DNA of 64,000 bases, from the NCBI RefSeq assembly GCF_053078305.1, contig NZ_CP166879.1, one strand, 5' to 3'. Both the position numbers and the translations under genes were made by a program. The number at the start of each line of letters is the position of its first letter. Position 1 is the first letter of the stretch. This document shows positions 252 through 63,332 of the stretch, in pieces. A model generated the notes under the pieces. The model was given only the letters and a program-made list of their open reading frames with translations. It was not told the origin of the DNA and did not search any database.

Positions 252-284
252 TTTTGGATGATGGCCGCCATGTGGCGGCCTGAA

Positions 285-587
285 TTATTTTTTGTTCTGA
301 TCGCGCAGCATCGCTTCACGTAAAATTGCGTTCAGGCGAGTTTGATAGCCTTTACCTGGTCGCTTCAACCATTCCATCACATCAGCATCAATACGCACCG
401 AAGCCTGAGTTTTCAATGGCCGATAAAACTTACCACGTTCGGCGTTAGACCATTGCTCATCGCTGGAAGGTGGGATATCACTGTAATCAATATCTTCGTC
501 GGATTTATTCGCCAGCGCCTTCAGTTCGGCCTCATGCTGCACATCGAGTGTAGAGGGTGCCCCTCGTTTATGTTTAACCATGCTCAT
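285..587 (-). CDS. BrnA-like antitoxin (RHH/DUF4415 type) of a BrnT/BrnA toxin-antitoxin pair
   Basis: About 100 aa from the internal Met (MSMVKHKRG…). The C-terminal motif RIDADVMEWLKRPGKGYQTRLNAILREAM is BrnA-like. The start overlaps the 3' end of the upstream toxin gene, as is usual for TA operons. Confidence 0.6.
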   Translation of the reverse strand: MSMVKHKRGAPSTLDVQHEAELKALANKSDEDIDYSDIPPSSDEQWSNAERGKFYRPLKTQASVRIDADVMEWLKRPGKGYQTRLNAILREAMLRDQNKK

Positions 588-855
588 AGCGACTCCTCTC
601 TTTACGATCTGCTTTTCGTGCACTGATGATTCGAATAATTTCATTTCCGCTTTCGAAACGGATGGTATGCGCAACCAGAATAACCACGATACCGTGAACC
701 AAGCCGATAGTCTGCCAGCGATACTCACCGTTTTCTATGCGATCTTGCTGTGACAAATGTTGTGGATCATCAAACACTAACACCGCATCTTCAAAGCGGA
801 TGCCATGTTTCACCCGATTACTTTTGGCCTTGTTTGCATCCCATTCAAACTCCAT
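574..855 (-). CDS. BrnT-like toxin (DUF497 ribonuclease toxin)
   Basis: 93 aa from MEFEWDANKAKSNRVKHGIRFEDA… with the characteristic RIISARKA motif. It sits upstream of and overlaps the BrnA-like gene. Confidence 0.65.
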   Translation of the reverse strand: MEFEWDANKAKSNRVKHGIRFEDAVLVFDDPQHLSQQDRIENGEYRWQTIGLVHGIVVILVAHTIRFESGNEIIRIISARKADRKERSRYEHG

Positions 856-1057
856 TGGCATAGTTGCCATCCCTAATTGTATATACAAAAATGTATCTAC
901 AATTATTCTGCAATTATAGCGTTGATGTTGGAAATAGCATCACGTTTTGGATAATCAACCATGAAATTGACAATGAGTAAGTTGGACTTGATTCATCCAA
1001 TAGAATTTCTCGCCTGACATGGCACACTAAACACCTCGCTGTCGTTAAGGGATTACC

Positions 1058-2224
1058 GTGAAAAACTATAAAGTTATTACCCCGCTTTTTCCTACCTATG
1101 CACAGGTTAAAGCTATGATGAAAGCCGTCTCAGGCTATTCCCTGAAAGCGGTACGCAATATGATTACCGCCATTCACGAGCAAACCGGTACGCCGCAAAA
1201 ACCCGTTGACTGGTCGGAACCCGACTTGTGGATCAGCGAGCGCTTAACGGGTGAAGATGCCGACATCGCCCGTCGTATTTGGGATACCGATAATCACATA
1301 TTGAACCCGCGCCACAGCTACGGCTGCTACTTATTCCTCAACTATCCCCAGTTTGAGCTGATGGAAAGCACTCCAGATGATACCTGGCAGCCCACCTCGC
1401 GCGGGCAAAAATTCCTGCAAGATGACGAAAAAACGCTGCGTTCACTGGACGACCAGGAAGGAATTCTGCAACTGCTTGAGCTGCTGGCTGGCCGGGAAAT
1501 GTCGCGCCGCGCCGATTTACTGCCGGAATGGCAGGCCTTTTTGCATCAGCATTCCAAATTCGCTTCCGACCGGTCAGCCAAAAGTACGCTCTACTCCCGT
1601 CTCTATAACCTTATCGACCGCGACATGGTTACTCGCGAAGGCATGAGCTATCGCATCACCGATACCGGGCGCGCCTGGCTTGGAAAAGCGTTGCCAGCAC
1701 GAAAAAGCGATCCGCGTAAAGAGCTGCTGGAAGCGGTGAAACGCTACAACGAGCAGCAAAAAGAGCTGCTGCGCGAACAAATCAGCACAATGAACCCGTA
1801 CAAATTTGAACAACTGGTCGGTCAATTACTGGAAGCAATGGGCTACGAGCAGGTCGAAGTGACCAAAGCCTCAGGCGATAAAGGCGTGGACGTGATTGGT
1901 CAGGTGCAGGTCGGCATCACCACTATTACCGAAGTGGTGCAGGTCAAAAGAATGCAGAACACCATCACTCGACCGTATATCGACCAGTTGCGCGGAGCGT
2001 TACCTTACCACAAGGCCATTCGCGGTACGCTTATCACCACCGGGAAATTTGCGGCGAAATGTGCAGAAGCGGCGCTCTTTCCGGGGGCAGCGCCCATTAC
2101 GCTTATCGACGGCGATCGCTTACTGGAACTGTTAATCGAAAATAACGTCGGCATTCGCCGCAGCAATGCAGTGGAATTGCTGGATGTGGATTTGCAGTTG
2201 TTTGATGAGCTGGAGATGGATTAA
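1058..2224 (+). CDS. Mrr-family (type IV, modification-dependent) restriction endonuclease, long form with N-terminal winged-helix region
   Basis: 388-aa ORF with a GTG start. The C-terminal ~150 aa have an Mrr catalytic (PD-(D/E)XK) signature (…GDKGVDVIGQ…EVVQVKR…). It is not the 304-aa K-12 Mrr sequence as I remember it, and it lies 63 bp upstream of hsdM on the same strand. Confidence 0.6.
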   Translation: MKNYKVITPLFPTYAQVKAMMKAVSGYSLKAVRNMITAIHEQTGTPQKPVDWSEPDLWISERLTGEDADIARRIWDTDNHILNPRHSYGCYLFLNYPQFELMESTPDDTWQPTSRGQKFLQDDEKTLRSLDDQEGILQLLELLAGREMSRRADLLPEWQAFLHQHSKFASDRSAKSTLYSRLYNLIDRDMVTREGMSYRITDTGRAWLGKALPARKSDPRKELLEAVKRYNEQQKELLREQISTMNPYKFEQLVGQLLEAMGYEQVEVTKASGDKGVDVIGQVQVGITTITEVVQVKRMQNTITRPYIDQLRGALPYHKAIRGTLITTGKFAAKCAEAALFPGAAPITLIDGDRLLELLIENNVGIRRSNAVELLDVDLQLFDELEMD

Positions 2225-2287
2225 AGGGCGAAATCCGCCGCCTCAACCATTACAATAGCGACCCAATTTATCTGAACAGAGTTCATC

Positions 2288-3903
2288 ATGGCCAAAGCAC
2301 CAACTAAAAAAGCCAAAGCAAAGAAAGGCTTTGAAGAAACATTATGGGATACCGCAAACCAGCTTCGCGGTAGCGTTGAGTCCTCCGAATACAAGCACGT
2401 GGTGTTGAGCCTCGTATTCCTGAAATTCATCAGCGATAAGTTTGAAGCACGCCGCAAAAAAATGATTGCCGATGGGCAAGCAGACTTCCTTGAGATGGAA
2501 GTGTTCTACCAGCAGGACAACATTTTCTACCTGCCGGAAGAGGCGCGCTGGTCGTTTATCAAACAAAATGCCAAACAGGACGATATTGCGGTTCGTATTG
2601 ACACCGCCCTCTCGACCATTGAGAAACGTAACCCAACCCTGAAAGGCGCGCTGCCAGACAACTACTTCAGCCGTCAGAATCTGGAAACCAAAAAACTGGC
2701 GTCACTGATTGATACCATCGACAACATCGAAACGCTGGCACACGAAACTGACGTTGAAACGTTGTCGAAAGAAGACCTGGTCGGACGCGTTTACGAATAC
2801 TTCCTCGGTAAGTTTGCCGCAACCGAAGGCAAAGGCGGTGGAGAGTTCTACACGCCCAAATGTGTGGTCACGCTGTTAACTGAAATGCTCGAACCCTTCC
2901 AGGGCAAAATTTATGACCCGTGCTGCGGCTCGGCAGGGATGTTCGTGCAGTCGGTGAAGTTCGTCGAGAGCCATCAGGGTAAAAGCCGTGATATCGCGCT
3001 GTATGGTCAGGAACTGACACGACGTATAAACTGGCAAAAATGAACCTCGCCATTCGCGGTCTTTCAGCTAACCTCGGCGAACGACCGGCAGACACCTTCT
3101 TTAGCGACCAGCACCCGGACCTGAAAGCCGACTACATTCTGGCGAACCCGCCGTTCAACCTGAAAGACTGGCGTAATGAAGCCGAATTAACCAAAGACCC
3201 ACGTTTTTCCGGTTATCGTATGCCGCCAACCGGTAACGCCAACTACGGCTGGATTTTGCATATGCTCTCCAAGCTGTCGGCTAACGGTACAGCAGGTTTT
3301 GTGCTGGCAAACGGTTCGATGAGTTCTAACACCAGCGGTGAAGGCGAGATCCGTGCACAGATGATCGAAAATGATCTGATCGACTGCATGATTGCTCTGC
3401 CAGGTCAGTTGTTTTACACCACGCAGATCCCGGTGTGTTTATGGTTTATGACCAAATCGAAGGCTGCCGATCCGGCCAAAGGTTATCGTGATCGTCAGGG
3501 CGAGACGCTGTTTATTGATGCGCGTAACCTCGGCACCATGATTAGCCGCACAACTAAAGAATTAACGGCGGAAGATATTGCCACAATCGCCGATACCTAC
3601 CATGCCTGGCGCAGTACGCCAGAAGAACTGGCTGCACGGATTGCGCGTGGTGACAGCAAGCTGGAAAAATATGAAGACCAGGCAGGCTTCTGCAAAGTTG
3701 CGACCCTGCAAGATATTAAAGATAACGACTACGTGCTGACGCCGGGCCGCTATGTGGGTGCAGCCGAGCAGGAAGAAGACGGCGTGGCATTTGAGACCAA
3801 AATGCGTGAATTGTCGAAGACGTTGTTTGAGCAGATGAAGCAGGCGGAAGAACTGGATCGTGCGATTCGCCAGAATCTGGAGGCGCTGGGTTATGGGGAG
3901 TAA
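2288..3903 (+). pseudogene. hsdM: Type I R-M DNA methyltransferase subunit HsdM, interrupted by a frameshift around 3011-3043
   Basis: Two adjacent ORFs (2288-3043 and 3040-3903) carry the N-terminal HsdM region with the AdoMet motif DPCCGSAGMF and the catalytic NPPF motif respectively. The frame changes inside …[20 protein letters not shown]…, consistent with a single-nucleotide indel. This may be a real mutation or a sequencing error. Confidence 0.7.
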
Positions 3904-5293
3904 AATTACACTCGCTGAAATATGTACAGATATTTCATATGGATATACAGCAAGCGCAACTGCGAAACCTGTTGGTCCTAAATTTCTCCGTATAACAGAT
4001 ATACAAGGAGGCAAGGTCAATTGGGAAAATGTACCTTATTGTGAAATAGATGAGAAAGACTCTTTAAAGTATTTATTGCAAGATGGTGATATCGTAATCG
4101 CAAGAACCGGAAACAGTACTGGCGAAAACTTTATATTTAGCTCAAATACAAAAGTAGTATTTGCATCATACCTAATTCGGTTCCGTATTGATCCAAAGAA
4201 AGCAAATCCCAAATTTATTTGGCTTCAAATGAGAACACCTCAATGGTGGAGTTTTATTGATTCCGTAAAAACTGGCTCAGCCCAAGCTGGAGCTAATGCA
4301 AAGGTTTTGGGACTGTATGAGGTTGAATTACCCGAAAGAAAAATTCAAGACCACATTGCTGATATTGGATTTAATTTACTAAAAAAACAGGATATTAACT
4401 CCAAAATAAACCAAACCCTGGAACAAATGTCCCAAACCCTGTTCAAATCCTGGTTTGTGGATTTTGATCCAGTGATTGATAACGCTCTGGATGCAGGAAA
4501 TCCAATCCCGGAAGCCCTGCAAACTCGCACCAAATTGCGTCAAAAAGTACGTAATAGTGCAGATTTTAAACCACTTCCGGCGGAAATCCGCTCGCTTTTC
4601 CCAAGTGAATTTGAAGAAACGGAGTTGGGTTGGGTACCTAAAGGTTGGGATGTCGTAAAAACTGAAGATATTGCTATAAAAATTGGCATGGGGCCGTTTG
4701 GTTCAAATATTAAAGCATCACAATTTGTTAGTAGCGGTATCCCAATCATTAATGGCCAACAACTTAAAGGGCTTATTTTAGAAAAAAATTTTATCAACTA
4801 TATTACTGATGAGCATGCAAATATTCTCAAGAATTCATTAGTATATGAACACGACATTGTGCTAACTCATCGTGGCACACTTGGTCAAGTTTCATTAATA
4901 CCAAAAAGAAAGGGAAATGAAAAATTTGTAATCTCTCAGAGCCAATTCTACTTAAGAGTTGATAGGAAAAAATGTTCACCTTTTTATATGATACATTTTT
5001 TAAAATCTAGAATTGGTCAGGAAGCATTACTCTCCAATGCTTCTCAGGTGGGGGTTCCTTCTATAGCTCGTCCATCAACCCATTTAAAAAAAATAACTTT
5101 CATAAACCCACCATTATCACTGCATAAACTCTTTGACAATGAATTTGAAGTGATACTAGAAAAAATCATGAATTGCAAAGAGCAGTCACTGGCCCTAACC
5201 GCACTCCGCGACACCCTGCTCCCGAAACTCATCTCCGGTGAGCTATCCCTGGAAGATCTTCCGGATCTCACCACCGATACAGAAGCCGCATAA
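3893..5293 (+). CDS. hsdS: Type I R-M specificity subunit HsdS
   Basis: The start ATG at 3893 overlaps the hsdM stop (ATGGGGAGTAA). The two-target-recognition-domain layout is typical of HsdS. The middle of the gene is AT-rich, as expected for variable recognition domains. Confidence 0.7.
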
Positions 5294-5387
5294 CGCATTT
5301 TGCCCCTGTAAAATCAGGGGCTTTCTGGTAAGGTTTTCTACTGATACAGGAATGCTTACCAGAAATTAGCCAGGGTTGGAGCGCGAT

Positions 5388-8300
5388 ATGAGTCTCTCTT
5401 TCAGTGAAGCAAAATTAGAACAAGCGATCATTGAACTGCTACAGGATCAGGGATATCAACACCTGATCGGCGATAATGTCCCACGTTCGAGTCTCGATCA
5501 GGTCATTATCGAAGACGATCTCCGTCATTATTTAGCGGCACGCTACCAGCCTGATGGCATTACTGAAGAAGAGATTCAGCGACTGATCAAACAGTTCACC
5601 ACGCTTCCGGCCTCCGACCTTTATGAAAGCAACAAAACATTTTGTCGCTGGCTGGCAAATGGTTTTCTGTTCAAACGCGACGATCGGCAACAAAAAGATC
5701 TCTATATTGAATTGCTCGACACCCGGCATCTACCTGCCGCACTGCGCCAGATATTTGACGCCGAAGATGTCCCGTTGCAACAGGCGGCGGAACTCCCGCC
5801 TTCCTATATGAATCCGCCGCTTAACCGGATTAAGATTGTTAACCAGCTTAAAATCTCCGGCAAAGATAATCAGACTCGTATTCCTGACGGCATTCTCTAT
5901 ATCAATGGTCTGCCATTGGTCGTCTTTGAATTTAAAAGTGCGGTGCGCGAGCAGGAAGCCAGTATTGGCGATGCCTGGAAGCAGCTCTGTAAACGCTATC
6001 GCCGGGATATTCCGCAACTGTTTATCTACAACACGCTCTGCATTATTAGCGATGGCGTAAATAACCGGATGGGCAACCTGTTTGCGCCCTATGAATACTT
6101 TTACTCATGGCGCAAAGTCACCGGTAATGAAAACCGTGAACAGGACGGAATTCCATCATTGCACTCAATGATTCAGGGGCTGTTTCATCCGGTACGTCTG
6201 CTGGATGTGATTAAAAACTTTATCTGCTTCCCGGATAAAGCCAAGCACGAAGTAAAAATTTGCTGCCGATATCCGCAGTACTATGCCGCCCGCAAACTCT
6301 ATTACAGCATCAAGCAAGCGCGTAAACCTTTCGGTAGCGGTAAAGGCGGCACCTACTTTGGCGCAACGGGCTGTGGCAAAAGTTACACCATGCAATTTTT
6401 AACGCGTCTTTTGATGAAGAGCGTGGAGTTTGCCAGCCCGACCATTGTTTTGATCACCGACCGCACCGATCTGGACGATCAGCTTTCTGCGCAAATGTGC
6501 AACGCCAAAAATTACATTGGCGACGACACCATCGTTCCTGTTACCAGCCGTGAAGATTTGCGTAATCAACTGGCGGGACGCAATAGTGGCGGTGTATTCC
6601 TGACAACGATCCATAAATTCACCGAAGACACCGAACTCCTTTCTGAACGCAGCAATATCATTTGCATCTCGGACGAAGCACATCGCAGCCAGGTTAACCT
6701 CGACCAGAAAGTCATCGTCGATAAAGAAAGCGGAAAAGTACGCAAAACGTATGGCTTTGCAAAATACCTGCACGATTCACTGCCAAACGCCACCTATGTT
6801 GGCTTTACCGGCACACCGATTGACGCGACGCTCGATGTCTTCGGTGAGGTGATCGACAGTTACACCATGACCGAATCCGTTCAGGATGAAATCACTGTAC
6901 GCATCGTGTACGAAGGCCGTGCGGCTAAAGTGATCCTGGACTCCAGCAAACTGGAAGAAGTCGAAAAGTATTACGAAGAGTGCGCAAACGCAGGCACCAA
7001 TGAGTGGCAAATCGACGAAAGCAAAAAAGCCACCGCAACCATGAATGCGGTACTGGGTGATGAAGATCGGTTAAAAGCCCTCGCGGAAGATTTTGCCAAA
7101 CATTATGAAAAACGCGTAGCCGAAGGTTCCACCGTAAAAGGCAAAGCCATGTTTGTTTGTGCCAGCCGTGAAATTGCCTGGGATTTCTACCGTCAGCTTA
7201 AAGCTATTCGCCCTGCCTGGTTTGAAGTGAAGCAAGCACCCGATGGCGTCGTCCTGACGGAACAGGAACAAAAAGAGTTACCGCCTTCTGAAATGGTGAA
7301 GATGGTCATGACGCGCGGTAAAGATGACGACGAGGCGCTTTATGATTTACTGGGCACAAAAGAATATCGTAAAGAGCTGGATAAGCAATTCAAAAACGCT
7401 AAATCGAATTTCAAAATTGCCATTGTTGTTGATATGTGGCTGACCGGTTTCGACGTCCCGGAACTGGATACCATCTATATTGATAAACCCTTACAAAAAC
7501 ATAATCTTATCCAGACCATTTCTCGCGTTAACCGTAAACTGGAAGGCAAAAGTAAAGGGTTAGTGGTGGACTACATCGGCATTAAAAGCCAGATGAACCA
7601 GGCACTGGCAATGTATTCCCGCATTGATGCCACCAACTTTGAAGATATTCAGCAATCGGTAATAGAAGTTAAAAACCATCTCGATTTGTTGGGGCAAGTC
7701 TTTTACGAATTTGACAGTCGGGATTATTTTAGTGGTGAGCCACAAGCGCAATTATCCTGCCTCAACCGCGCGGCGGAATTTGTTCTGCGTACCCAGAAAG
7801 TTGAACGTCGTTTTATGGGACTGGTTAAACGCATGAAAGCCGCCTACGACGTCTGCTGCGGCAGCGAAGCATTATCACAGACAGAACGTGACTATATTCA
7901 CTATTATCTTGCTGTTCGTTCAATTGTTTTCAAACTGACGAAAGGTGACGCACCGGATGTTACCCAGATGAATGCACGCGTTCGTGAAATGATTGCAGAA
8001 GCGTTAAAAGCTGATGGCGTAGAAGAAATTTATTTTCTTGGGGATAAAAAAGCGGAATCCATCGATATTTTTGACGAAGATTATCTGGCGCGAATTAACA
8101 AAATCAAACTTCCGGCAACAAAGATCCAGTTATTACAAAAATTACTGGAAAAAGCGATCAGCGACTTCAAGAAAGTGAACCAGTTACAAGGGATTAACTT
8201 CACCCGCCGCTTCCAGGCGATTATAGATCGTTATAATGAGCGGCGAGAAGATGATGTACTCAACGGTGAAGAATTCGATACATTCAGTCAGGAAATGACC

Positions 8301-8651
8301 GATATTATCTATGATATTAAAACCGAAATGGGCACCTGGGCCGATTTAGGTATTGATATTGAAGAAAAAGCGTTTTTCGACATTCTTGCTCATATGCGCG
8401 ATAAATATCAGTTCACCTATGACGATGAAAAAATGCTGTCACTGGCAAAAGAGATGAAAAGCGTGGTTGACAACACATCGAAATATCCTGACTGGAGTAA
8501 ACGCGATGATATTAAAGCGAAACTGAAAGTTGAACTTATTCTGCTTCTACACAAGCATAAGTTCCCGCCAGTAGCGAATGATGATGTTTATATGGGTGTG
8601 CTGGCACAGGCAGAGAATTTTAAAGAACACCATATGAATGCTTTAAATTAA
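5388..8651 (+). CDS. hsdR: Type I R-M restriction subunit HsdR (SF2 helicase/nuclease)
   Basis: About 1087 aa with helicase motifs GATGCGKS (Walker A), DEAH (ICISDEAHRSQ), GFTGTP and LTGFDVP…ISRVNR. The ATG at 5388 has a GGAG ribosome-binding site 6 nt upstream; the ORF list used an upstream TTG. Confidence 0.75.
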   Translation: MSLSFSEAKLEQAIIELLQDQGYQHLIGDNVPRSSLDQVIIEDDLRHYLAARYQPDGITEEEIQRLIKQFTTLPASDLYESNKTFCRWLANGFLFKRDDRQQKDLYIELLDTRHLPAALRQIFDAEDVPLQQAAELPPSYMNPPLNRIKIVNQLKISGKDNQTRIPDGILYINGLPLVVFEFKSAVREQEASIGDAWKQLCKRYRRDIPQLFIYNTLCIISDGVNNRMGNLFAPYEYFYSWRKVTGNENREQDGIPSLHSMIQGLFHPVRLLDVIKNFICFPDKAKHEVKICCRYPQYYAARKLYYSIKQARKPFGSGKGGTYFGATGCGKSYTMQFLTRLLMKSVEFASPTIVLITDRTDLDDQLSAQMCNAKNYIGDDTIVPVTSREDLRNQLAGRNSGGVFLTTIHKFTEDTELLSERSNIICISDEAHRSQVNLDQKVIVDKESGKVRKTYGFAKYLHDSLPNATYVGFTGTPIDATLDVFGEVIDSYTMTESVQDEITVRIVYEGRAAKVILDSSKLEEVEKYYEECANAGTNEWQIDESKKATATMNAVLGDEDRLKALAEDFAKHYEKRVAEGSTVKGKAMFVCASREIAWDFYRQLKAIRPAWFEVKQAPDGVVLTEQEQKELPPSEMVKMVMTRGKDDDEALYDLLGTKEYRKELDKQFKNAKSNFKIAIVVDMWLTGFDVPELDTIYIDKPLQKHNLIQTISRVNRKLEGKSKGLVVDYIGIKSQMNQALAMYSRIDATNFEDIQQSVIEVKNHLDLLGQVFYEFDSRDYFSGEPQAQLSCLNRAAEFVLRTQKVERRFMGLVKRMKAAYDVCCGSEALSQTERDYIHYYLAVRSIVFKLTKGDAPDVTQMNARVREMIAEALKADGVEEIYFLGDKKAESIDIFDEDYLARINKIKLPATKIQLLQKLLEKAISDFKKVNQLQGINFTRRFQAIIDRYNERREDDVLNGEEFDTFSQEMTDIIYDIKTEMGTWADLGIDIEEKAFFDILAHMRDKYQFTYDDEKMLSLAKEMKSVVDNTSKYPDWSKRDDIKAKLKVELILLLHKHKFPPVANDDVYMGVLAQAENFKEHHMNALN

Positions 8652-8658
8652 TTATGAA

Positions 8659-8692
8659 GGCCGGATACACTTTGTTATCCGGCCATTCTGAA
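8659..8692 (+). terminator. Probable intrinsic terminator after hsdR
   Basis: Stem-loop GGCCGGATA…TATCCGGCC starts 8 nt after the hsdR stop and is followed by an A/T-rich tail. Confidence 0.45.
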
Positions 8693-8770
8693 TTAACGTT
8701 AATTTCTCTTCCAGATCTTTCCAGTAACGCTTTTATTATTTTCTATTTTTAGCTGGACTTTCCCTGTATT

Positions 8771-8790
8771 TACTGATGATATATCCAGGT
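8771..8790 (+). promoter_or_regulatory. Candidate LexA (SOS) box upstream of symE
   Basis: TACTGatgatatatcCAGgt fits the CTG-N10-CAG LexA consensus and lies about 80 bp upstream of the symE start. symE is known to be SOS-induced. Confidence 0.45.
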
Positions 8791-8794
8791 ATTT

Positions 8795-8871
8795 AGCGCG
8801 GTGCGGATGTGCGCCAACACACCCGCACCGCTAATCACAATCACTATTTATAGGGAATAGCAGTTATGACT
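8795..8871 (-). ncRNA. symR: Probable SymR antisense sRNA covering the symE ribosome-binding site and start codon (boundaries approximate)
   Basis: On the minus strand inside the 5' end of symE there is a sigma70-like promoter (TTCTGC-N17-TAGAAT) that would start transcription about 3-6 nt inside symE and read antisense across its RBS. This matches the known SymR arrangement. Confidence 0.4.
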
Positions 8872-9204
8872 GATACGCATTCTATTGCACAACCGTTCGA
8901 AGCAGAAGTCTCCCCGGCAAATAACCGTCAATTAACCGTGAGTTATGCGAGCCGCTACCCGGATTACAGCCGTATTCCCGCCATCACCCTGAAAGGTCAG
9001 TGGCTGGAAGCCGCCGGTTTTGCCACTGGCACGGCGGTAGATGTCAAAGTGATGGAAGGCTGTATTGTCCTCACCGCCCAACCACCCGCCATCGAAGAGA
9101 GCGAACTGATGCAGTCGCTGCGAAAGGTGTGCAAGCTATCGGTGCGTAAACAAAAGCAGGTGCAGGAATTTATTGGGGTGATTAGTAGCAAAACGCCACG
9201 CTAA
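8866..9204 (+). CDS. symE: SymE, SOS-induced type I toxin (AbrB-fold)
   Basis: 112-aa [55 protein letters not shown]… that I recognise as SymE (YjiW). Confidence 0.8.
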
Positions 9205-9212
9205 GTTTCTCT

Positions 9213-9238
9213 CCCCTTCCCCACACGGGAAGGGGAAT
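9213..9238. terminator. GC-rich hairpin between convergent symE and yjiS (possible bidirectional terminator)
   Basis: CCCCTTCCC-acac-GGGAAGGGG inverted repeat with a 9-bp stem between the two convergent stop codons. The U-tract is weak. Confidence 0.35.
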
Positions 9239-9246
9239 TTCCCCCC

Positions 9247-9411
9247 TCACTCCACATCCTCCCTGCGTAACCCGATATCCCTCAACCGTTCATCACTCAT
9301 CTGCTGTAACACCCGTCGGGCCTGCATTTGCCGCCGCCAACGCCTCACCGCCTGCCAGAGTTGTACAAGTCTGATAAACGGCGTTTTGGCTTTGTTTTCG
9401 TGAAATTCCAT
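9247..9411 (-). CDS. yjiS: DUF1127 small protein YjiS
   Basis: 54-aa minus-strand ORF below the ORF-track cutoff: MEFHENKAKTPFIRLVQLWQAVRRWRRQMQARRVLQQMSDERLRDIGLRREDVE. It matches YjiS as I remember it. Confidence 0.65.
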   Translation of the reverse strand: MEFHENKAKTPFIRLVQLWQAVRRWRRQMQARRVLQQMSDERLRDIGLRREDVE

Positions 9412-52767: not shown

Positions 52768-53418
52768 TTAATTTGATTTATTCGCATCCATCAACGCTTT
52801 TAACTCCTCCGGCGTAAACGGTGGTTTGCGTCGGTGCAACATCGCATGGCAATTAGGGCACACAGGAAGTAAATCATTAACTGGATCCAGCAGGTAATCC
52901 TCTTTAATGGCTGAAAGCGGCACCAGGTGATGCATATGGATAAAGCCCTCAGCGATATCGCCATAGATCTTCACCAGATCAACGCCGCATACGTTGCACT
53001 GGCATCCGTGATATTCGACTGCTTTCTCGCGAGCTTTTTTATCGCGTTCATAGCTGTTTACCGTCACCTTTATCGCCGCACCTTCAACGTAGGTCCCCTG
53101 CGACGGCAACTCATCCGGGAACAGAACATCGGCTATGGGAGCCGCAGCGGCTTTATCCTGATGAATATGAAATCCCTGATCTATAAGTAGCTTGACGCAT
53201 TTAGATTTTATTCCGCCGGTGAAATCCGCAGGGGTAAATTGCGTCCCCGTCATCAATGTCGCTGCGATGCCAGCAATCGCCTTCGAGGGGTAACGTCGGC
53301 CATGATATTCAATCTCATACAACCGTGCAGGCTGGAACTGATGAGTTTCTCCCGCATCCCATAAATGAATAGCTTTGATGATATACCGCCGAGGAAGATG
53401 ATCGGGGAGTTTATTCAT
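52768..53418 (-). CDS. HNH-endonuclease-domain protein (possible modification-dependent restriction nuclease)
   Basis: 216 aa with a C-terminal HNH/zinc-finger signature CQCNVCG…HMHHLVP…N…CPNCH. The N-terminal domain is unidentified. Confidence 0.55.
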   Translation of the reverse strand: MNKLPDHLPRRYIIKAIHLWDAGETHQFQPARLYEIEYHGRRYPSKAIAGIAATLMTGTQFTPADFTGGIKSKCVKLLIDQGFHIHQDKAAAAPIADVLFPDELPSQGTYVEGAAIKVTVNSYERDKKAREKAVEYHGCQCNVCGVDLVKIYGDIAEGFIHMHHLVPLSAIKEDYLLDPVNDLLPVCPNCHAMLHRRKPPFTPEELKALMDANKSN

Positions 53419-53497
53419 GGAGAATGTCCTTATACGTTCTCAGAACAAGCAGCAAAAAAACAAATGAGATCAAAGTAATATATCTTCACTTGCAGGC

Positions 53498-54427
53498 TTG
53501 AACAGCAGAAAATTTGCGAGCATGATCGCAATTATTTCACTGCCAGGGATATCAATGGCTTCCAGTAAATCGCTACAGCAGGCAATTGCCAATATAAAAA
53601 TCTGGCATAAGGGTGAACAGCGCGCGCCGCATAAGCCATTGTTATTGCTATACGTATTAGCGGGATACCTGCATGGACATCCGCGCCTTTTCGATTATGG
53701 CTCGGAAATCTACGAACCTCTGCACAGTTTACTGGAACGTTTTGGGCCACAGCGTTCACAGTACCGACCTGATATGCCGTTCTGGCGATTACAAGGCGAC
53801 GGATTCTGGCAATTACACAATGCCGAGCGTTGCTCAACAGCAGGGAGCAGCCGACAACCGCCAGTGAAGGAACTGAACGAATACCACGTTGCAGGCGGTT
53901 TCGATGAACAGCACTACGCCCTGGTAACCGGCAATAAAAAACTCATCAATACTCTGGCGCAACAGATACTCGAAGCGCACTTCACCGAGAGTATTCAGGA
54001 AGAAATTGCTGACGAGCTGGGTTTTGATCTCCAGCAAATCCGTAAACAGCGCGACCCGTTATTTCGCAAAAATGTATTACGCGCTTATAAATACCAGTGC
54101 GCGATATGTGGCTTTAATATGCGCCACGACGACACCACCGTCGCGCTGGAAGCGGCGCATATAAAATGGAAACAGCACGGCGGTCCTTGTGAAATTCCTA
54201 ATGGCCTGGCGCTTTGCGCAATTCACCATAAAGCCTTTGATAAAGGATCGATTGGCCTGGACGAAAATATGCGGGTACTGGTATCAGATGCGGTAAACGG
54301 CGGAGGGATCGTTGAGAGATTATTCTGGGATTTTGACGGGAAAACTATTGCGTTGCCGCAGGTGCGTAAAAATTACCCTTATGAGGGGTTTGTGGAGTGG
54401 CATCGGAAAGAGGTTTTTAGGGGGTGA
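53498..54427 (+). CDS. HNH-endonuclease-domain protein (second copy, divergent)
   Basis: 309 aa with a C-terminal HNH signature YQCAICGF…AAHIKW…NGLALCAIHHKAFDKG. The N-terminal domain is unidentified. Confidence 0.55.
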   Translation: MNSRKFASMIAIISLPGISMASSKSLQQAIANIKIWHKGEQRAPHKPLLLLYVLAGYLHGHPRLFDYGSEIYEPLHSLLERFGPQRSQYRPDMPFWRLQGDGFWQLHNAERCSTAGSSRQPPVKELNEYHVAGGFDEQHYALVTGNKKLINTLAQQILEAHFTESIQEEIADELGFDLQQIRKQRDPLFRKNVLRAYKYQCAICGFNMRHDDTTVALEAAHIKWKQHGGPCEIPNGLALCAIHHKAFDKGSIGLDENMRVLVSDAVNGGGIVERLFWDFDGKTIALPQVRKNYPYEGFVEWHRKEVFRG

Positions 54428-54468
54428 GGTTGATAACTATCGCAGTATGTTCAATATTGCTGACATAA

Positions 54469-54651
54469 TCAGTGCAGGATCTTGCCGCTAGTTTACAACT
54501 CGCCTTCGATAGCGGCGCAAAACGAGTTCTGTTGCCGATATCCTCGGCTATGGATATTCCAACAGTTCCGGCAGAGTTGTTTACCAAGTTTCAGGTAAGT
54601 TTTTACTCAGAACCGGTTGATGCGGTTTATAAGGCGCTGGATGTGAATTAA
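54469..54651 (+). pseudogene. Possible 3' remnant of a Lon-like protease gene
   Basis: Start-less 60-codon frame ending …LQLAFDSGAKRVLLPISSAMDIPTVPAELFTKFQVSFYSEPVDAVYKALDVN*. This resembles the extreme C-terminus of Lon-family protease domains. Confidence 0.3.
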
Positions 54652-55049
54652 CACATTCCTCAGCTTATTTATAAAAGGATTATTCCCATTTGATATAATA
54701 TCAGTGCCAATTTACTTTTTTCAATGGAATATATCTCGGCTAAATAACAATAAAACTTATCGCTAATGGATTAAATAAACAATTTTCTAATTCATTTCAC
54801 CACCTTTGATATAGAAATTGATGGTGTTGTCGCTGCCATTGCTTATGGTGATGATAAAATCCACGTTTCTGGATCGTTGCGTAGAAAATCATCACTACCT
54901 TGATATTTTGATGCGATATGATCATACCGTTCCGTAGTACCAATTTCAATTTCAGGCTAAACCCCAACATTAAAAAAATTAGAGTTATTCACTGATTATA
55001 TTATCAATAATATAATCAGTGAATAACATGGACTATATAATAAATTGCT

Positions 55050-57320
55050 CTAATCATTTCCCTTACGAATATATGGGCCAAAAGCCCAAGAATCATAATA
55101 AGGGTGATGGACTAGTTTTTCATTAAATCGAACACTATAAGTTAATTTTTTTATATTTTTACGTACAGCATTAATACTGGGCAAAGAGGAAAGATAATCT
55201 ATAAACTTATCGATAGTGATTTCCCCTTCGCAACACTCAAACCCATCAATGATATTTTTCGCCATTTTTCCATTTTCATTTGTTTGATATATCACTCCAG
55301 GTATTCGTTGAAAAAAACTAGATAATGCATATTTGTCCGCTACATATGTATCATCCACATGATATTTCCCACCGAGCATAGTTGTAGTAACAATAAGCTT
55401 ATACACACCTTTGGGTTGCCATGTTGATGGTAGTTCGAATTCTTTAATGATCACATCAAGATGATTAAGATAATGTTCAGAAATTCGATTTATTTGTTGA
55501 AAATAAGAACGCATAAATTTATTATTATGATCATGTATTAATGAGCTATCTCCAACGATGTTACACACTTGCTGATAGTACTTACCATAATATATTGGTT
55601 GACCATTTGATTTTAGTTCTGTAAAAATCAAACAATCATCCAGGAGAATCACGCAATCGCACTGATAATTAGCATGAGCATCAATTGGAGAAGCTTTAAT
55701 CCCCGCATCACGAACTTGTTTTATAAATTGTTGCTCATGAAATCGCCCTTTACTTGCTTGAGAAATTTTTTTGGAACCAAATAATGACATTAGAGAGCGA
55801 GTCACTGAGCTATTTGCTATTAATGCAGGCATTAAGCATAAACCGTCCATACAGGGAATAAATGGGCAATCATTAAGATCATGTGATTTTGAATTGAAGG
55901 TAAAATAATCTATCAGTTTTTTTGCTGCATCTGCTGCAATCCCCTTACGTTGAAAGAATGATAACCAACTCTCACGGCTTTTTATGATCAGCCAGCGATC
56001 CAACTGTAGGGGTATAGGTTTTGTCGATGAAAATCTTTTGCTCATTTCTTCTTTAGATAACTCGACTAAACATTGATAAGCGTGCACCCAATTAAATAAT
56101 GATATATTCCCATATTCTTCATGAAGGTCATCAGGAGATATATTTTCCAACTCGCTTAGATGAAATGAGCTAAAAACGCCATCAGAATTTAAGTAAGATG
56201 GCATATGATCCTTTACCCAACTATTTAGATGAAAATGTTTGTTACTAAATTCATGAACTTCGCTATATAGATGTGACGCTCTCATCATTAGTCTATTTCT
56301 TGCAATCTCATAATCTCGGTATAAACAAAAACTATCAACCTCAAGAGAGTAAATGTTATTATCCAATTTTGTAAATACTGCACTACTTAGTCTGAAAAAG
56401 TCTCTTACTCTGCTTAATGAGTCAAAAACATTCCACTCATTAAGGTACCCTCCCATTGAAAGCAAGGTTTGTTTATTCACACAAGAAGTTAGTTTCAATG
56501 GCTCATGAGTCCGTAAATAAGAAAATATTCGTCCGGTGTAATTGGCTACCTCATCAAATGCCCTATCGATAACTCGAAAATATTCGATATCAGGTTCAGC
56601 ATGAATATTAATATTTTCAGAAACGATTACTCTGCTTAATGAGTCAAAAACATTCCACTCATTAAGGTACCCTCCCATTGAAAGCAAGGTTTGTTTATTC
56701 ACACAAGAAGTTAGTTTCAATGGCTCATGAGTCCGTAAATAAGAAAATATTCGTCCGGTGTAATTGGCTACCTCATCAAATGCCCTATCGATAACTCGAA
56801 AATATTCGATATCAGGTTCAGCATGAATATTAATATTTTCAGAAACGATAAATAATGGAAAAATCCTCTTCATTTTTTTAGGATCATTGACCACAACCAA
56901 GGATGATAATGATGATAAAAACATCTCACAAAACATGATGAGATTAAGTATTAATGCATGTGATTTTTTTGTATTTTTACGCCAAATACCAGCACATTTT
57001 GTAGCCGCAAAGAAAGAATTATTTATATCATGCATAATTTTACATTGACTCTCGAACTCAGAAATTAGTTCAATGTTATCAGGAAATGAGTTTACTAGCT
57101 CATTAATACATTTTTTGAATGTATTGTTATACTCAACTTCAGTCTGAACTGAAAATCTATTATAATAGATGGAAGATATTCTCAGCACATCCAAGGCGAT
57201 ATCTATACTAATATCATCTCTTTTTATGTACTCACAAAAAAAAGAACAAAACTGTTTCGGGTCGTTAGCAAGATTACTAATTCTAGTGGTATCATAAACT
57301 TTTTCCATTTTTCCATACAT
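55050..57320 (-). CDS. Large low-GC hypothetical protein (756 aa) with an internal 74-aa perfect tandem duplication
   Basis: Long minus-strand ORF with its own AT-rich upstream region and no recognisable family by eye. A possible PD-(D/E)XK-like motif (CDCVILLDD…TELK) lies in the C-terminal third. Confidence 0.5.
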   Translation of the reverse strand: MYGKMEKVYDTTRISNLANDPKQFCSFFCEYIKRDDISIDIALDVLRISSIYYNRFSVQTEVEYNNTFKKCINELVNSFPDNIELISEFESQCKIMHDINNSFFAATKCAGIWRKNTKKSHALILNLIMFCEMFLSSLSSLVVVNDPKKMKRIFPLFIVSENINIHAEPDIEYFRVIDRAFDEVANYTGRIFSYLRTHEPLKLTSCVNKQTLLSMGGYLNEWNVFDSLSRVIVSENINIHAEPDIEYFRVIDRAFDEVANYTGRIFSYLRTHEPLKLTSCVNKQTLLSMGGYLNEWNVFDSLSRVRDFFRLSSAVFTKLDNNIYSLEVDSFCLYRDYEIARNRLMMRASHLYSEVHEFSNKHFHLNSWVKDHMPSYLNSDGVFSSFHLSELENISPDDLHEEYGNISLFNWVHAYQCLVELSKEEMSKRFSSTKPIPLQLDRWLIIKSRESWLSFFQRKGIAADAAKKLIDYFTFNSKSHDLNDCPFIPCMDGLCLMPALIANSSVTRSLMSLFGSKKISQASKGRFHEQQFIKQVRDAGIKASPIDAHANYQCDCVILLDDCLIFTELKSNGQPIYYGKYYQQVCNIVGDSSLIHDHNNKFMRSYFQQINRISEHYLNHLDVIIKEFELPSTWQPKGVYKLIVTTTMLGGKYHVDDTYVADKYALSSFFQRIPGVIYQTNENGKMAKNIIDGFECCEGEITIDKFIDYLSSLPSINAVRKNIKKLTYSVRFNEKLVHHPYYDSWAFGPYIRKGND
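56405..56849 (-). repeat. Perfect 222-bp direct tandem duplication, in frame, inside the 756-aa ORF
   Basis: The two adjacent 222-bp copies are identical by eye and encode …SENINIHAEPDIEYFRVIDRAF…NEWNVFDSLSRV twice. Confidence 0.85.
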
Positions 57321-57975
57321 CCTATTGTCTAAATTACTATAAAACTAGCCACTTAACTAATAATTATAAATTTCATCTTTTACACCTTGCATTTTTATAA
57401 CCAATGAAATCTACAACAAGCAACTGATGGATAATCCGATATTGGTCGCATTTAATGGCATGGTAGCAAAGTTTTCATCACATACCTCCTTTGCACCAGA
57501 ATAAACGCCAGAGATCTGAAATTGCGAGTACACTACAGAAATTGTACTGCTGGTCCCATCAGCATAAAACCATAGTTACACAGGTAATCATCATTATTCG
57601 CCAAGATAATAAATATTATTCGGTAGAATAGCGTTCTCAGGTGGTCAGTAAAATTGTCTTCAACAAGATGTCTGCGCATCTCGTCTGCTAGCCCTACATA
57701 ACTGCTCTCGACCGAAACTATTTATTGAATGTTCACCAAGGTGGGCGTGGAGACAAAATGACGTCTTTTGATATTAGCTACCTGAGCCACATGGTCAAAA
57801 CGTTCAAGTAGCATAGCGAAACCACCCTGCCCACGTAATGTGGACGATGCAGCTTCCAGCCAGAGCAAACTTGGGACCATCGACTACAAAATGAAGAATA
57901 CTGAACTGCTTTTCTGGCAGGCCTATATACTGCACGGATATGGGTGATTTCAGACACAAAAAAAGCCGCCCTTGA

Positions 57976-58285: not shown

Positions 58286-59154
58286 TCACATAAAAAGATT
58301 ATTAATTAGAGTACACTGTTGACATCCATTAATATCTACAGCTTTTAAAAAATCTGTGTTACTAATCAAAACAGCATTACTAACACCTGAAAACTGCAGC
58401 TGTGCATACATACCTAAGATAGATTTTTTTTCGTAATACTGAGATCTTCCTGTATAACTTTCACCAGTATTAGAACTTATAAATCGCCTCGTTCTTTCTT
58501 GTATCAATAAATTATTTTTAAGGAAGCTCAAAATATCTTGCTGCAATTGTTTGTTTTTGTTATGAAAATAACATAACAATTGATCCTCTAAGGTACCAAG
58601 CTGAGTGTTAACGTCATGAAAAATATACCCCCCCATTCACTCCCATTAAACTCAATAATACTTCCATTGGAGAGTTGAGTAGTATCTTCTAAACCTATCT
58701 CATTTTTAATCTCTGTTATTCTGGCATCAATGCCAAGTTCATCAGCATCAAAAAAATATAAAAATCTATATGCAATTTCTATACTGAAGTCATCTGTACC
58801 AGAAAGTTCTTTATACATAGTGACTAACTCAGCCCTTTCACGACTTCTGCCATCACCATTTAGATTATGTATAAAAATTAAGTTCCCGTTATGATAGAAA
58901 CAAACAGAAGGTAGTTTTGGCCCGTTTGGCTGAAAGCCAAGTTTTTTATCTGGAATTCTTACTTGACTTAGTTCTTTTTCAAAGCGTTTATCAAACGGTG
59001 GAGGTAATTGACCAATTTTAAGATCTTGAAGTTGGAATCCATTAACTAAAAGAATTCTGCTAAGAAAAGCGACGTCATGCTGTCCTTCACAAAAGGCAAC
59101 TATGACTCTATTATAAGATACACTCACAATTTTAGCCTCTAATATCAAGATCAA
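58286..59154 (-). pseudogene. Toprim-like (OLD/AriB-like) gene split by a frameshift at a G7 tract
   Basis: ORFs 58588-59154 and 58286-58636 overlap across a C7/G7 homopolymer (58628-58634). The N-terminus has VAFCEGQHD and a later FFDADELG (Glu … DxD), suggestive of a Toprim fold. Fusing the frames gives an approximately 300-aa protein. Confidence 0.45.
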
Positions 59155-61369
59155 TATTTTTTATCAAATAGCCAAATCTTTCGCCATCAGCCCTTTTCAC
59201 TACTACTTTATCGTCAACTTTGCTTAACTGAAATCCAGTAATGCAATCATTATTATAATCATTATTTAAAAAAGCTCTGATACATTCACCCGAATGTGAC
59301 GTAAGGAACACTTGCACATTGAAACGTTCTGCAAGTTGTTGCGTAAATTTAGTAAACTCCAATAGTAAACTATAATGAATCGCAGTTTCAAATTCATCAA
59401 TAAAAAGTACACCGTTACGACATGCAGCAAAAGATAAAGCTATATAAAAGATGCGCTGAATACCCTCTCCATAAGAAGTAAGATCGAAACTTCTGTTAAA
59501 ATCATATGCTGATTCTACGATAAACCTTTTGAGCTCCATGTCTTCAGTAAATCTGACATCTTTTATCGTTGGCTCAATTTTATTCATGAATTCAATAACA
59601 AGGCCGATAGCGGATTGTATATTTAAATCATCTGATTCTGAGTCAGTTACAGACGTTAAATTTGCACCTATACTTTTGTTATAATCAGTGAGCAAATCGT
59701 CTATATCGTAGAAATAAGGGCTTTTAAATGACGATGAACACAAATGCGAAACTTGATCAGCGTTCCTTCTCATACGTTCATGGATAAAAGTATGGACTGT
59801 GTTATTTCTAAATTCTCCATCAATGCTAGACTTTAAGCTATAAGATGCTATATAGTCATCTTGTTTATCAATTGAAGAATCATCATATTTAATCATTTCA
59901 ACAGTAACATTACTATCATCAAATACTCCTGACAAGATTATTTTATCTTGGAAAAGAGCATTTAGCAATGTTGGACTCAAAGTACTGATTTTATTTTTTT
60001 GCCTAATAAGATTAAAATGCGATGAAATATCATTACGCTGCGTCAATAAGTAAATTGCTTCAAGCAATGAAGTTTTTCCAGCATTATTAAAGCCAGCAAT
60101 GATATTAATCTTATTGAAATTATCCAATGAGAAGTTTTTAAAGAATTTATATTTTTTGATATAAATGGATTTAAAATGTTTTTTTACTCCATACTCAAAA
60201 TTAGTTGTATAGTTTCCTCCTTCGATATTTATAGCCATCTGCTTTGGCATTATTTGTGTTAGTTTTTCTTTTGCATCATCTAATAAGCGCAAATCCTCTT
60301 GGTTTATGAGGCTACTATATAGATTTAAATCCTTTAAGGCGTCTTCAAGCTTGCTTAAAGCATTTTTATAGTTTTGCTGATTTACTGAACCGCTCGCAGC
60401 TAATCCTCTTGCAAGGCTACGTTCATCCTCCATTACCTTCAAGGCTTTTTCATTATTGATGAACAAAGCAAGATCTCGTATCTCAAGAGATTTAGTAATT
60501 ATAGGTTCTAGCTCAACGTATTCACCATTACTTTCCTCTTCAATATCATCTTCTAGCTCATTTTTCTCAAGGTATTCATCTGTTTTAGAGATCCACGAAA
60601 AAAGCCTATCAAGATTCACTAAATTTCTAGCATAATAACCGTTATCACTCCAGTCTAACCAAGATTTAATTACAGGCTTTTTGATTATTTCTTCAAAAAT
60701 ACCAAACATACTTGGTTCGAATTGCTCACCATACTCACTTGTTTTATATAAGGAAATTAGATTATAAACTCTAAGCATAGAGCGAAGACGCGTTTTAGAA
60801 ATACCGAGCGAACTAACTAGCTCATCTTCTTTTTCAACATACTCATCTCGAGTTTTGTCTTCATATGGTTTTAAAAAATCATAAAGCAGTTTGGACTGAT
60901 TATATGTTGACCACTTTTTATTACCACTTATATGCTTTAATCCCATTACAATCAGATGTTTTTCAACATCTTGATTATTATGGATTTCGAAAGGAACACT
61001 TCTAAAAATAGATGGATCTAGTTTTCCAATATCAAACCCCTTTTCATATGCTTCTTGCAATGCTTTCAGCGCCGTTACACGACGATTTCCCTCAAGGACT
61101 AAATAATTGTTATCTCCTAAATCCTTTACTTGAATAACATCAACATCTAAGTATCCATTAGATTTAAAACTTGCTATTAGATCTTTGATATTCTCTTGTC
61201 TATTTCCTTCTATAAAAAAGCGAGTCCTACGCTGAATTGTTGGATCTAGCATGTCCTTTTCTGAGACTGGCTTGTGCTGGTCATTGTCAACAAAACGGTA
61301 GTTATTAGGATCTAGAAATAAATTTTTTAAATTTTTGCTAATGCGCGGGCGAATTTGCTCGACATTCAT
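59132..61369 (-). CDS. Fusion of an N-terminal ParB/Srx-like domain with a C-terminal ABC-type (SMC/RecF/OLD-like) ATPase
   Basis: 745 aa. ParB box LVLEGNRRVTALKAL near the N-terminus; Walker A GFNNAGKTS, Walker B LFIDEFE and H-loop LTSHS in the C-terminal half. Low GC. Confidence 0.6.
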   Translation of the reverse strand: MNVEQIRPRISKNLKNLFLDPNNYRFVDNDQHKPVSEKDMLDPTIQRRTRFFIEGNRQENIKDLIASFKSNGYLDVDVIQVKDLGDNNYLVLEGNRRVTALKALQEAYEKGFDIGKLDPSIFRSVPFEIHNNQDVEKHLIVMGLKHISGNKKWSTYNQSKLLYDFLKPYEDKTRDEYVEKEDELVSSLGISKTRLRSMLRVYNLISLYKTSEYGEQFEPSMFGIFEEIIKKPVIKSWLDWSDNGYYARNLVNLDRLFSWISKTDEYLEKNELEDDIEEESNGEYVELEPIITKSLEIRDLALFINNEKALKVMEDERSLARGLAASGSVNQQNYKNALSKLEDALKDLNLYSSLINQEDLRLLDDAKEKLTQIMPKQMAINIEGGNYTTNFEYGVKKHFKSIYIKKYKFFKNFSLDNFNKINIIAGFNNAGKTSLLEAIYLLTQRNDISSHFNLIRQKNKISTLSPTLLNALFQDKIILSGVFDDSNVTVEMIKYDDSSIDKQDDYIASYSLKSSIDGEFRNNTVHTFIHERMRRNADQVSHLCSSSFKSPYFYDIDDLLTDYNKSIGANLTSVTDSESDDLNIQSAIGLVIEFMNKIEPTIKDVRFTEDMELKRFIVESAYDFNRSFDLTSYGEGIQRIFYIALSFAACRNGVLFIDEFETAIHYSLLLEFTKFTQQLAERFNVQVFLTSHSGECIRAFLNNDYNNDCITGFQLSKVDDKVVVKRADGERFGYLIKNIDLDIRG

Positions 61370-61682: not shown

Positions 61683-61964
61683 TCAGACAGGAATCTGCTG
61701 ACGGCTTGACAGTTTTGACGCGGAGCCATAGCGATTAAGTGTTTGCTGTTGTTTTTCCGGGGATTGTGCTTTGTCTGATAGCTGTTCATTGCGTCGGGGT
61801 TTCATGATTATCTTATCCACACTCTCCAGTGCCGTAAATGTGCAGGAACATTCCAGATTCTGGCACTGATACCACGAGCGTTTAACTGACGGAGCTTCAT
61901 AGGCTGCTGTTCTGGCGTGTGCAACTGTACCGCATTCCGGACATTTAAGTGCCATTAATATCAC
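61683..61964 (-). CDS. Ogr/Delta-family zinc-finger late-gene activator
   Basis: 93 aa with a CPECG…HARTA…YQCQNLECSCTF four-cysteine motif, like P2 Ogr and P4 Delta. Confidence 0.8.
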   Translation of the reverse strand: MILMALKCPECGTVAHARTAAYEAPSVKRSWYQCQNLECSCTFTALESVDKIIMKPRRNEQLSDKAQSPEKQQQTLNRYGSASKLSSRQQIPV

Positions 61965-63252: not shown

Positions 63253-63276
63253 GGCTTCTCCTGTCGGGTTGGTTCG

Positions 63277-63332
63277 TTACGTCAATTGTGTCGTGGCTGA
63301 CACAAGCACACTATCGGTGCTCAGTGTGTGGT
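63277..63332 (-). promoter_or_regulatory. Two TGT-N12-ACA dyads (candidate Ogr/Delta activator sites) upstream of sid
   Basis: TTGTGTCGTGGCTGACACAA (63276-63295) and TGTGTGGTGGCTGGCACA (63315-63332), about 38 bp apart. Confidence 0.45.

Follow-up and report, generated by a model that had tools for sequence, protein, structure and literature searches.

Which genes fill the immigration-control region (ICR) of this strain, and does the type I restriction–modification system that they encode still work? In the 64 kb of DNA analysed here (the window), the ICR slot, bounded by yjiA and yjiS, is occupied by a cassette that differs from that of E. coli K-12. The left anchor is the conserved 3′ end of yjiA (1–251, + strand; 97.2% DNA identity to K-12 yjiA), a gene annotated as such in TUM13936 and Nissle, and the right conserved flank begins with yjiS (9247–9411, − strand; 54 aa, DUF1127; 90.7% identical to K-12 YjiS). 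Homology to K-12 ends at 251, resumes over 8735–9183 and again from 9237, which bears out the proposal of a preliminary description that a known defence hotspot is present here as an alternative allele. That description delimited the block as 1058–9411; the block that stands in place of K-12 sequence is nevertheless wider (252–8734) and includes brnA and brnT.

The K-12 order, rightly given there, is a divergent mrr followed by hsdR-hsdM-hsdS, symE, mcrBC, yjiV, yjiT and yjiS. In the window, by contrast, the list of open reading frames and their translations place a Mrr-like gene, hsdM, hsdS and hsdR in this order on the + strand, and symE and yjiS converge across a gap of 42 bp (9205–9246), both as previously described. 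The genes are true hsd and Mrr-family homologues in a layout distinct from that of K-12, the point on which the proposal hinged. Both loci share a chromosomal slot, pair a type I system with a Mrr-family nuclease and keep symR/symE (93.5% DNA identity), whereas the window has brnTA and lacks mcrBC, yjiV and yjiT. These last genes are absent from the whole 64 kb, as the description had stated, and neither the K-12 yjiT-yjiV-mcrCB stretch nor the K-12 hsdSMR-mrr segment has a DNA match within the window.

To be recognized as type I, a locus should encode HsdM (HsdM_N and N6_Mtase domains), HsdS (two target-recognition domains, TRDs) and HsdR (a nuclease with an SF2 motor). NCBIfam models identify both hsdM and hsdR, and PADLOC returns MTase_I (642 bits) together with Specificity_I and REase_I; the supporting Pfam matches were obtained on the intact 539-aa HsdM and the identical HsdS of a closely related contig (L004). 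The hsdS gene (3893–5293, + strand; 466 aa; Specificity_I, 404 bits) overlaps hsdM by 11 nt, and hsdR (5388–8651, + strand; 1087 aa) is intact (TIGR00348, 469 bits against a cut-off of 285; REase_I, 1718 bits). With regard to family, the window HsdR is 99.6% and the repaired HsdM 99.4% identical to EcoMII, above the approximately 90% that is usual between members of one type I family (PMC2481252). Given that the R subunit of EcoMII is reported to be 92% identical to that of StySBLI, the type ID prototype (PMC4659465), we assign the system to type ID. Likeness to the named members StySBLI (CGA N6 TACC), EcoR9I and KpnAI, which hold the same allelic ICR position, is known through EcoMII rather than from direct alignment; compared with these prototypes, the window system is probably inactive (see below). 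In the targets of type ID enzymes, 6 bp separate the two methylated adenines (PMC12707154, Table 1), and the EcoMII motif, A(m6A)C N4 CTTT (PMC4659465), would fit this spacing if the second methylated A lies opposite its first T.

Other families fit poorly. HsdM is only 24% identical to that of EcoKI (type IA), and HsdR 25% over only 219 aa; against type IC, HsdR gives a partial match to EcoR124 HsdR (E = 2e-24, residues 142–510), and the M-S-R order shared with type IC does not by itself define a family.

The cassette is already known. It was described in the ST131 strain EC958 (PMC4659465) and reviewed among ICR systems (PMC12707154), in which types IA, IB and ID each come with their own type IV partner and toxin–antitoxin modules include brnAT, symE/symR and rpn (PMC12707154); the ICR is a textbook defence island whose cassettes, partners and toxin–antitoxin modules are already reviewed, and the field gains little from this locus. 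In EC958, RM.EcoMII is reported as an hsdM-hsdS-hsdR operon with an adjacent, syntenic ‘Mrr’ gene, and m6A at AAC(N4)CTTT is lost when the system is knocked out (PMC4659465). The EC958 locus (RM.EcoMII and ‘Mrr’, EC958_0076-0079) has a layout identical to that of the window, that is, yjiA, brnAT, Mrr-like gene, hsdM-S-R, symE and yjiS; its Mrr-like protein is 98.2% identical to ours, and EcoMII proteins occur in Nissle 1917 as well. The comparison across E. coli genomes that the preliminary description had called for shows the arrangement to recur, with the same order and near-identical proteins in Nissle 1917, TUM13936 and EC958. In total, the same cassette (brnTA, Mrr-like gene, hsdM-S-R and symER) is found in approximately 880 (about 1 in 6) of the 5426 complete E. 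coli genomes, including Nissle 1917 and EC958. Counted separately, the Mrr-like gene occurs in 880 genomes and this hsdM in 872, and 700 contain 80% or more of the 11 kb. What was earlier called ‘restructured’ is nothing out of the ordinary for E. coli: it is the usual type ID form of the ICR.

What sets the window apart from EC958 is a frameshifted hsdM, intact in that strain, and an HsdS in which both TRDs differ. TRD1 is 99.4% identical to that of strain AF16 and TRD2 100% to that of strain GF3-3: HsdS is a rare reassortment of two TRDs that occur separately in other strains; the whole allele is found in 1 of the 5426 genomes. TRD1 is just 26% identical to TRD2 of EcoKI. As both TRDs are only about 20% identical to those of EcoMII, the target of this HsdS should not be AAC(N4)CTTT. 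Over 4001–5000, in the hsdS region, the GC content dips to 0.36.

The preliminary description had read hsdM as one gene, yet the window holds two open reading frames. The 5′ fragment (2288–3043, + strand; open reading frame list and translation) encodes 251 aa, of which 244 are native and 7 out of frame before a stop, and contains HsdM_N and the AdoMet motif DPCCGSAGMF; the 3′ fragment (3040–3903, + strand), in another frame, encodes 287 aa corresponding to native residues 253–539 and contains the catalytic NPPF motif. They are separated by a 4-bp deletion (AGCC/CAGC; junction at 3017–3019, + strand) relative to every intact copy, in the non-repetitive context CTGAC[AGCC]ACGACG. The fragments were defined by alignment to the HsdM of TUM13936, which is intact at 539 aa. 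No other indel is present over 11 kb relative to TUM13936, or over 9.2 kb relative to contig L004, which is otherwise 3 SNPs apart. None of the 872 genomes with this hsdM among the 5426 carries the deletion: all align to the deletion segment at no more than 96.8% (121/125), none reaching 99%, and neither truncated product was found among approximately 15 billion proteins. The lesion is best explained as private to this strain and recent. Of the type I genes, hsdS and hsdR are intact and hsdM alone is split; since HsdM is required for both methylation and restriction, the strain has probably lost type I activity altogether (predicted r−m−). We consider it very probable that 252–8734 is a type ID cassette (StySBLI/EcoR9I/KpnAI family) in which a private 4-bp deletion breaks hsdM, with a predicted r−m− phenotype. 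Because the type I half carries this genetic lesion, the earlier phrase, which has type IV and type I systems combined, holds for the ancestry of the cassette but not for the likely phenotype. For the strain, we would expect easier DNA uptake and a methylome that lacks a bipartite m6A motif, with neither type I methylation nor type I restriction. Separately, the ATG of the 3′ open reading frame overlaps the upstream stop (ATGA), such that the cell could produce the two halves and complementation between them is conceivable. The window also contains a second indel, at about 58627, where a C8 run is short by 1 bp, and the assembly may contain indel errors.

The Mrr-like gene (1058–2224, + strand) encodes a 388-aa protein with a winged-helix N terminus (approximately residues 1–212) and a C-terminal Mrr_cat domain (Pfam, E = 3.8e-29). 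The D...QxK signature of the catalytic family is present as D278, Q295 and K297, which match the GID...VQAKR motif of EcoKMrr in the alignment and do not vary across 43 homologues. Only this domain is shared with EcoKMrr (31% identity), whereas the N-terminal 215 aa are unrelated to it in sequence and do not form an EcoKMrr-type DNA-binding domain. A sequence search of the PDB with this protein returned nothing, and fold searches alone were informative. PADLOC matches the protein to PDC-S02 (PDLC04796; 685 bits, residues 1–386 against profile positions 1–383 of 390), which it treats as a single-gene candidate; in the literature on PDC-S02 we found survey mentions only, and neither a functional test nor an experimental report. 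The designation ‘type IV’ thus derives from the nuclease domain, and dependence on modification is presumed with it.

Two readings that would change the diagnosis of the system itself have to be weighed. Were the 4-bp deletion an error of sequencing or assembly, the strain would be r+m+, with an intact type ID system of the rare TRD1(AF16)/TRD2(GF3-3) specificity. The rest of the cassette is indeed intact and merely 3 SNPs from L004, and the other indel in the window sits in a homopolymer, as is typical of read errors; the hsdM lesion, however, spans 4 bp in a non-repetitive context, unlike the usual error of a platform, and the surrounding 11 kb is otherwise free of indels. On balance, we regard such an error as unlikely. 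A different family, type IB (the EcoAI family), might be suggested by the relatedness of Nissle 1917, which has the arrangement of the window, to CFT073, for which type IB has been reported (PMC8287963). The CFT073 locus, however, is a different cassette in the same slot (type IB EcoCFTI), in which DUF262, hsdR (810 aa, ‘EcoAI/FtnUII family’), hsdM (489 aa) and hsdS (589 aa) precede symE and GmrSD; it keeps symE but differs from the window in type I family, in gene order (R-M-S) and in its type IV partner, GmrSD replacing the Mrr family. Given that the window HsdM is only 26% identical to that of CFT073 and that its HsdR has no significant match there, type IB was rejected and retains virtually no probability.

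The remaining readings concern the bond between the nuclease and its neighbours. One would have the Mrr-like gene work with the type ID system as its fourth component, for example as a co-transcribed partner or back-up nuclease. The Mrr-like gene and this hsdM co-occur almost one to one in E. coli (880 and 872 genomes) and lie on one strand with a gap of 63 bp and no significant hairpin, and the Mrr-like gene is reported to be syntenic wherever the type I system occurs (PMC4659465). Yet this linkage is explicable by a single cassette inherited at one locus, and close homologues (61–80% identity) stand beside BREX (L005) and beside other type I families, in varied orders and orientations (L006, L010/L011), while a distant one (53%) stands alone (L008). 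Moreover, this hsdM occupies 896 places in the 872 genomes, the second-site copies coming without an extra Mrr-like gene, which is always present once per genome, and PADLOC models PDC-S02 as a single-gene candidate. A fourth component is thus improbable, and the nuclease is best explained as an independent module that, judged by its genomic neighbourhoods, also occurs without type ID genes. Bolder still are the proposals that the nuclease and hsdMSR form a two-tier unit, or that the ATGA-coupled hsdM halves are a working split methyltransferase; these draw on the co-occurrence and the ATGA overlap, and we consider them highly improbable speculation. An example of two tiers would be a nuclease that acts on DNA escaping or inhibiting the type I enzyme.

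In type I systems, an HsdM2-HsdS1 complex methylates both adenines of a bipartite target, and the addition of two HsdR subunits yields an ATP-driven translocase-nuclease that cuts unmodified DNA. In the intact relatives of this cassette, hsdM and hsdS, with their 11-nt overlap, would probably be co-translated, with hsdR following after a hairpin, and the Mrr-like enzyme, as a winged-helix DNA binder with a PD-QxK nuclease, may attack foreign-modified DNA. The sequence itself establishes which genes are present, their family (by identity), and the frameshift with its uniqueness; the loss of type I function and the modification dependence of the Mrr-like nuclease are predictions. The deletion shifts the frame after residue 244 and so parts the AdoMet-binding motif I from the catalytic NPPF motif on separate open reading frames, while the Mrr-like gene, hsdS, hsdR and both toxin–antitoxin modules (brnTA and symER) are still intact.

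Two toxin–antitoxin modules flank these genes. On the left, on the − strand, are brnA (285–587; 100 aa) and brnT (574–861; 95 aa), antitoxin and toxin, respectively. The BrnA annotated in TUM13936 and the BrnT annotated in both Nissle and TUM13936 match their products at 100% identity, and Pfam BrnA_antitoxin and BrnT_toxin match the same genes in contig L004. On the right, symE (8866–9204, + strand; 112 aa; NF010128, 219 bits against a cut-off of 132) encodes a protein 88.5% identical to K-12 SymE, and the antisense RNA antitoxin symR (8795–8871, − strand; full-length match to Rfam RF01809, 94.3 bits against a gathering threshold of 61) overlaps its start at 8866, as in a SymE/SymR type I toxin–antitoxin pair. 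Scans for regulatory signals were uninformative: promoter-like sites numbered 8 where 12.6 were expected, and terminator-like sites 10 where 10.8 were expected. The terminator scan includes a hairpin with a U-rich tail between hsdS and hsdR (5302–5321, + strand; −14.9 kcal/mol, z = −2.25), possibly a terminator or attenuator. The 42-bp gap between symE and yjiS holds a G+C-rich 10-bp hairpin (9212–9236; −20.2 kcal/mol, z = −3.8, with none of 200 shuffles as good), probably a bidirectional terminator, at the very site (homology breaks at 9183 and 9237) where K-12 carries the 7.6 kb of mcrBC, yjiV and yjiT.

At the immigration-control region (that is, the chromosomal slot from yjiA to yjiS), the window and K-12 share DNA homology only over 1–251 (yjiA), 8735–9183 (symR/symE) and the stretch from 9237 onward (yjiS, yjiR and beyond), so that 252–8734 stands in place of the K-12 mrr–hsdRMS block. 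The K-12 order given in the preliminary description matches the MG1655 locus (yjiA, divergent mrr, hsdR-hsdM-hsdS, symR/symE, mcrB, mcrC, yjiV, yjiT, yjiS), and its view that a known hotspot here carries an alternative allele holds, given the K-12 homology on both sides of the replaced block. The 7.6 kb of K-12 comprising mcrBC, yjiV and yjiT is replaced by a 53-bp stretch; neither this segment nor K-12 mrr–hsdRMS has a DNA match within the whole 64-kb window, in agreement with the reported absence of mcrBC, yjiT and yjiV.

The plus strand carries a gene for a 388-aa Mrr-like protein (1058–2224; ORF call, Pfam Mrr_cat on residues 243–359), hsdM (2288–3903; NCBIfam hsdM, PADLOC MTase_I), hsdS (3893–5293; PADLOC Specificity_I), which overlaps hsdM by 11 nt, hsdR (5388–8651; NCBIfam, 469 bits, cut-off 285; PADLOC REase_I) and symE (8866–9204; NCBIfam SymE, 219 bits, cut-off 132), with the symR antisense RNA (8795–8871; Rfam match) and yjiS (9247–9411; ORF call) on the minus strand. 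A strong hairpin (−20.2 kcal/mol, z −3.8) lies in the 42-bp interval between symE and yjiS. All ORFs described earlier at the locus are thus present, and NCBIfam, PADLOC and Pfam matches identify them as the proposed hsd and mrr homologues; that account was accurate except that it overlooked a frameshift in hsdM and a BrnT/BrnA toxin–antitoxin pair (285–861, minus strand) inside the block that replaces K-12 sequence. Downstream of yjiR, an Rpn-family recombination-promoting nuclease gene (11242–12186, minus strand) with an intact 314-aa ORF sits where K-12 has the pseudogene rpnD.

Among 5426 complete E. coli genomes, the Mrr-like gene is found in 880 (always one copy), hsdM of the window type in 872 (896 places in all) and 80% or more of the 11-kb region in 700; about 16% of strains thus carry this arrangement, which makes it a standard allele. 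The proposed alternative allele is real, yet it is common and already described rather than new. For its type I system, type IB was considered, given that Nissle 1917 shares the arrangement and its relative CFT073 has been published as type IB (PMC8287963). This was ruled out, as the CFT073 locus differs (DUF262, an 810-aa hsdR of the ‘EcoAI/FtnUII family’, a 489-aa hsdM, a 589-aa hsdS, symE and GmrSD), with the window HsdM 26% identical and HsdR without a significant match. Against K-12's type IA system, identity is about 24%.

The Nissle 1917 locus has protein accessions identical to those of the EC958 locus. RM.EcoMII, the type I system of EC958 (ST131), is an hsdM-hsdS-hsdR operon, the knock-out of which removes m6A at AAC(N4)CTTT; the R subunit of EcoMII is reported to share 92% identity with the one from the type ID prototype StySBLI, and an adjoining ‘Mrr’ gene is syntenic in genomes with the system (PMC4659465). 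As the window HsdR and repaired HsdM are 99.6% and 99.4% identical to those of EcoMII, respectively, the window system is type ID by sequence, the formal family criteria being complementation and serology. Types IA, IB and ID have all been found in the immigration-control region, each with its own type IV partner, plus brnAT, symE/symR and rpn modules (2025 review, PMC12707154). The window HsdS shares the central and C-terminal conserved regions of EcoMII HsdS, but both target-recognition domains (TRDs) are only about 20% identical. Only one complete genome has the window hsdS allele in full. In the TRD1 region this allele shares 99.4% identity with that of strain AF16, and in the TRD2 region 100% with that of strain GF3-3, which is classic TRD reassortment.

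With EcoKMrr, the Mrr-like protein has only the C-terminal catalytic domain in common (31% identity over 173 aa), in which the D...QxK residues align and are invariant in 43 homologues. Along its whole length the protein matches PDC-S02, a single-gene candidate of PADLOC, and its AlphaFold2 model (pLDDT 83) comprises a helical, winged-helix-like N-terminal region, matching MarR/PadR winged-helix proteins in a fold search, and a nuclease domain resembling AF1548, AspBHI, MspJI and the LlaBIII nuclease in fold. We infer that the nuclease is modification-dependent. Homologues at 61–80% identity adjoin BREX or sit in different orders and orientations beside other type I families, one at 53% stands alone, and second-site copies of the window-type hsdM come without a second Mrr-like gene; on the basis of these contexts, we conclude that the gene is an independent defence module travelling with the cassette in E. 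coli and not a type I subunit.

In the window, hsdM is split into two ORFs in different frames (2288–3043, 251 aa; 3040–3903, 287 aa) by a 4-base loss, CTGAC[AGCC]ACGACG, at about 3017–3019, the sole indel in 11 kb relative to the best E. coli match. With a 121-bp probe over the site, matches are found in 872 complete genomes, all of which have the extra four bases (best identity 96.8%; none at 99% or above). A contig of GCA_043582385.1 encodes an identical HsdS and an intact 539-aa HsdM, and differs from the window over 9.2 kb by three SNPs and the hsdM indel. Neither fragment product is found among about 15 billion catalogued proteins, which include the window’s Mrr-like protein and HsdS. 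In these comparisons, the lesion is private to the window genome. A read error is the less likely explanation because the lesion lies outside any homopolymer. The frame is lost after HsdM residue 244, which divides the motifs between the two ORFs: AdoMet-binding DPCCGSAGMF in the first, catalytic NPPF in the second. Type I systems require HsdM for both modification and restriction, and a null in either hsdM or hsdS is r−m− (neither restricting nor modifying); an inactive system is therefore predicted in the window genome despite intact hsdS and hsdR. Both gene sets of the proposed joint type IV and type I block are present, but the type I half is probably dead here.

Further along, a phosphorothioated-DNA-binding restriction endonuclease (309 aa; NCBIfam NF045808, 439 bits) adjoins a 216-aa ORF (together 52768–54427), the counterparts of which are annotated as HNH endonuclease in strains D8 and fS58a; the ORF is intact in the window and a truncated pseudogene in fS58a. 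Between this endonuclease and the two-gene PADLOC candidate system PDC-M38 (58588–61369, minus strand), a 3.4-kb segment (54437–57858) replaces the ‘PDDEXK family nuclease’ of fS58a and holds an uncharacterised defence-island gene, a 756-aa ORF (55050–57320, minus strand) that matches nothing in Pfam, NCBIfam or PADLOC. The PDC-M38 A gene is intact (745 aa, 1109 bits). In the B gene, the loss of 1 bp at about 58627, where a C8 run has become C7, leaves 188 aa of the 280 aa seen in fS58a; this loss reflects either a true frameshift or a read error in the homopolymer. At 61961–64000 (minus strand), P4-like satellite genes (polarity-suppression proteins; in the matching strain, a TOPRIM/DUF927 primase) flank these candidate defence genes, suggesting that a satellite carries a defence hotspot beyond fim and nanCM.
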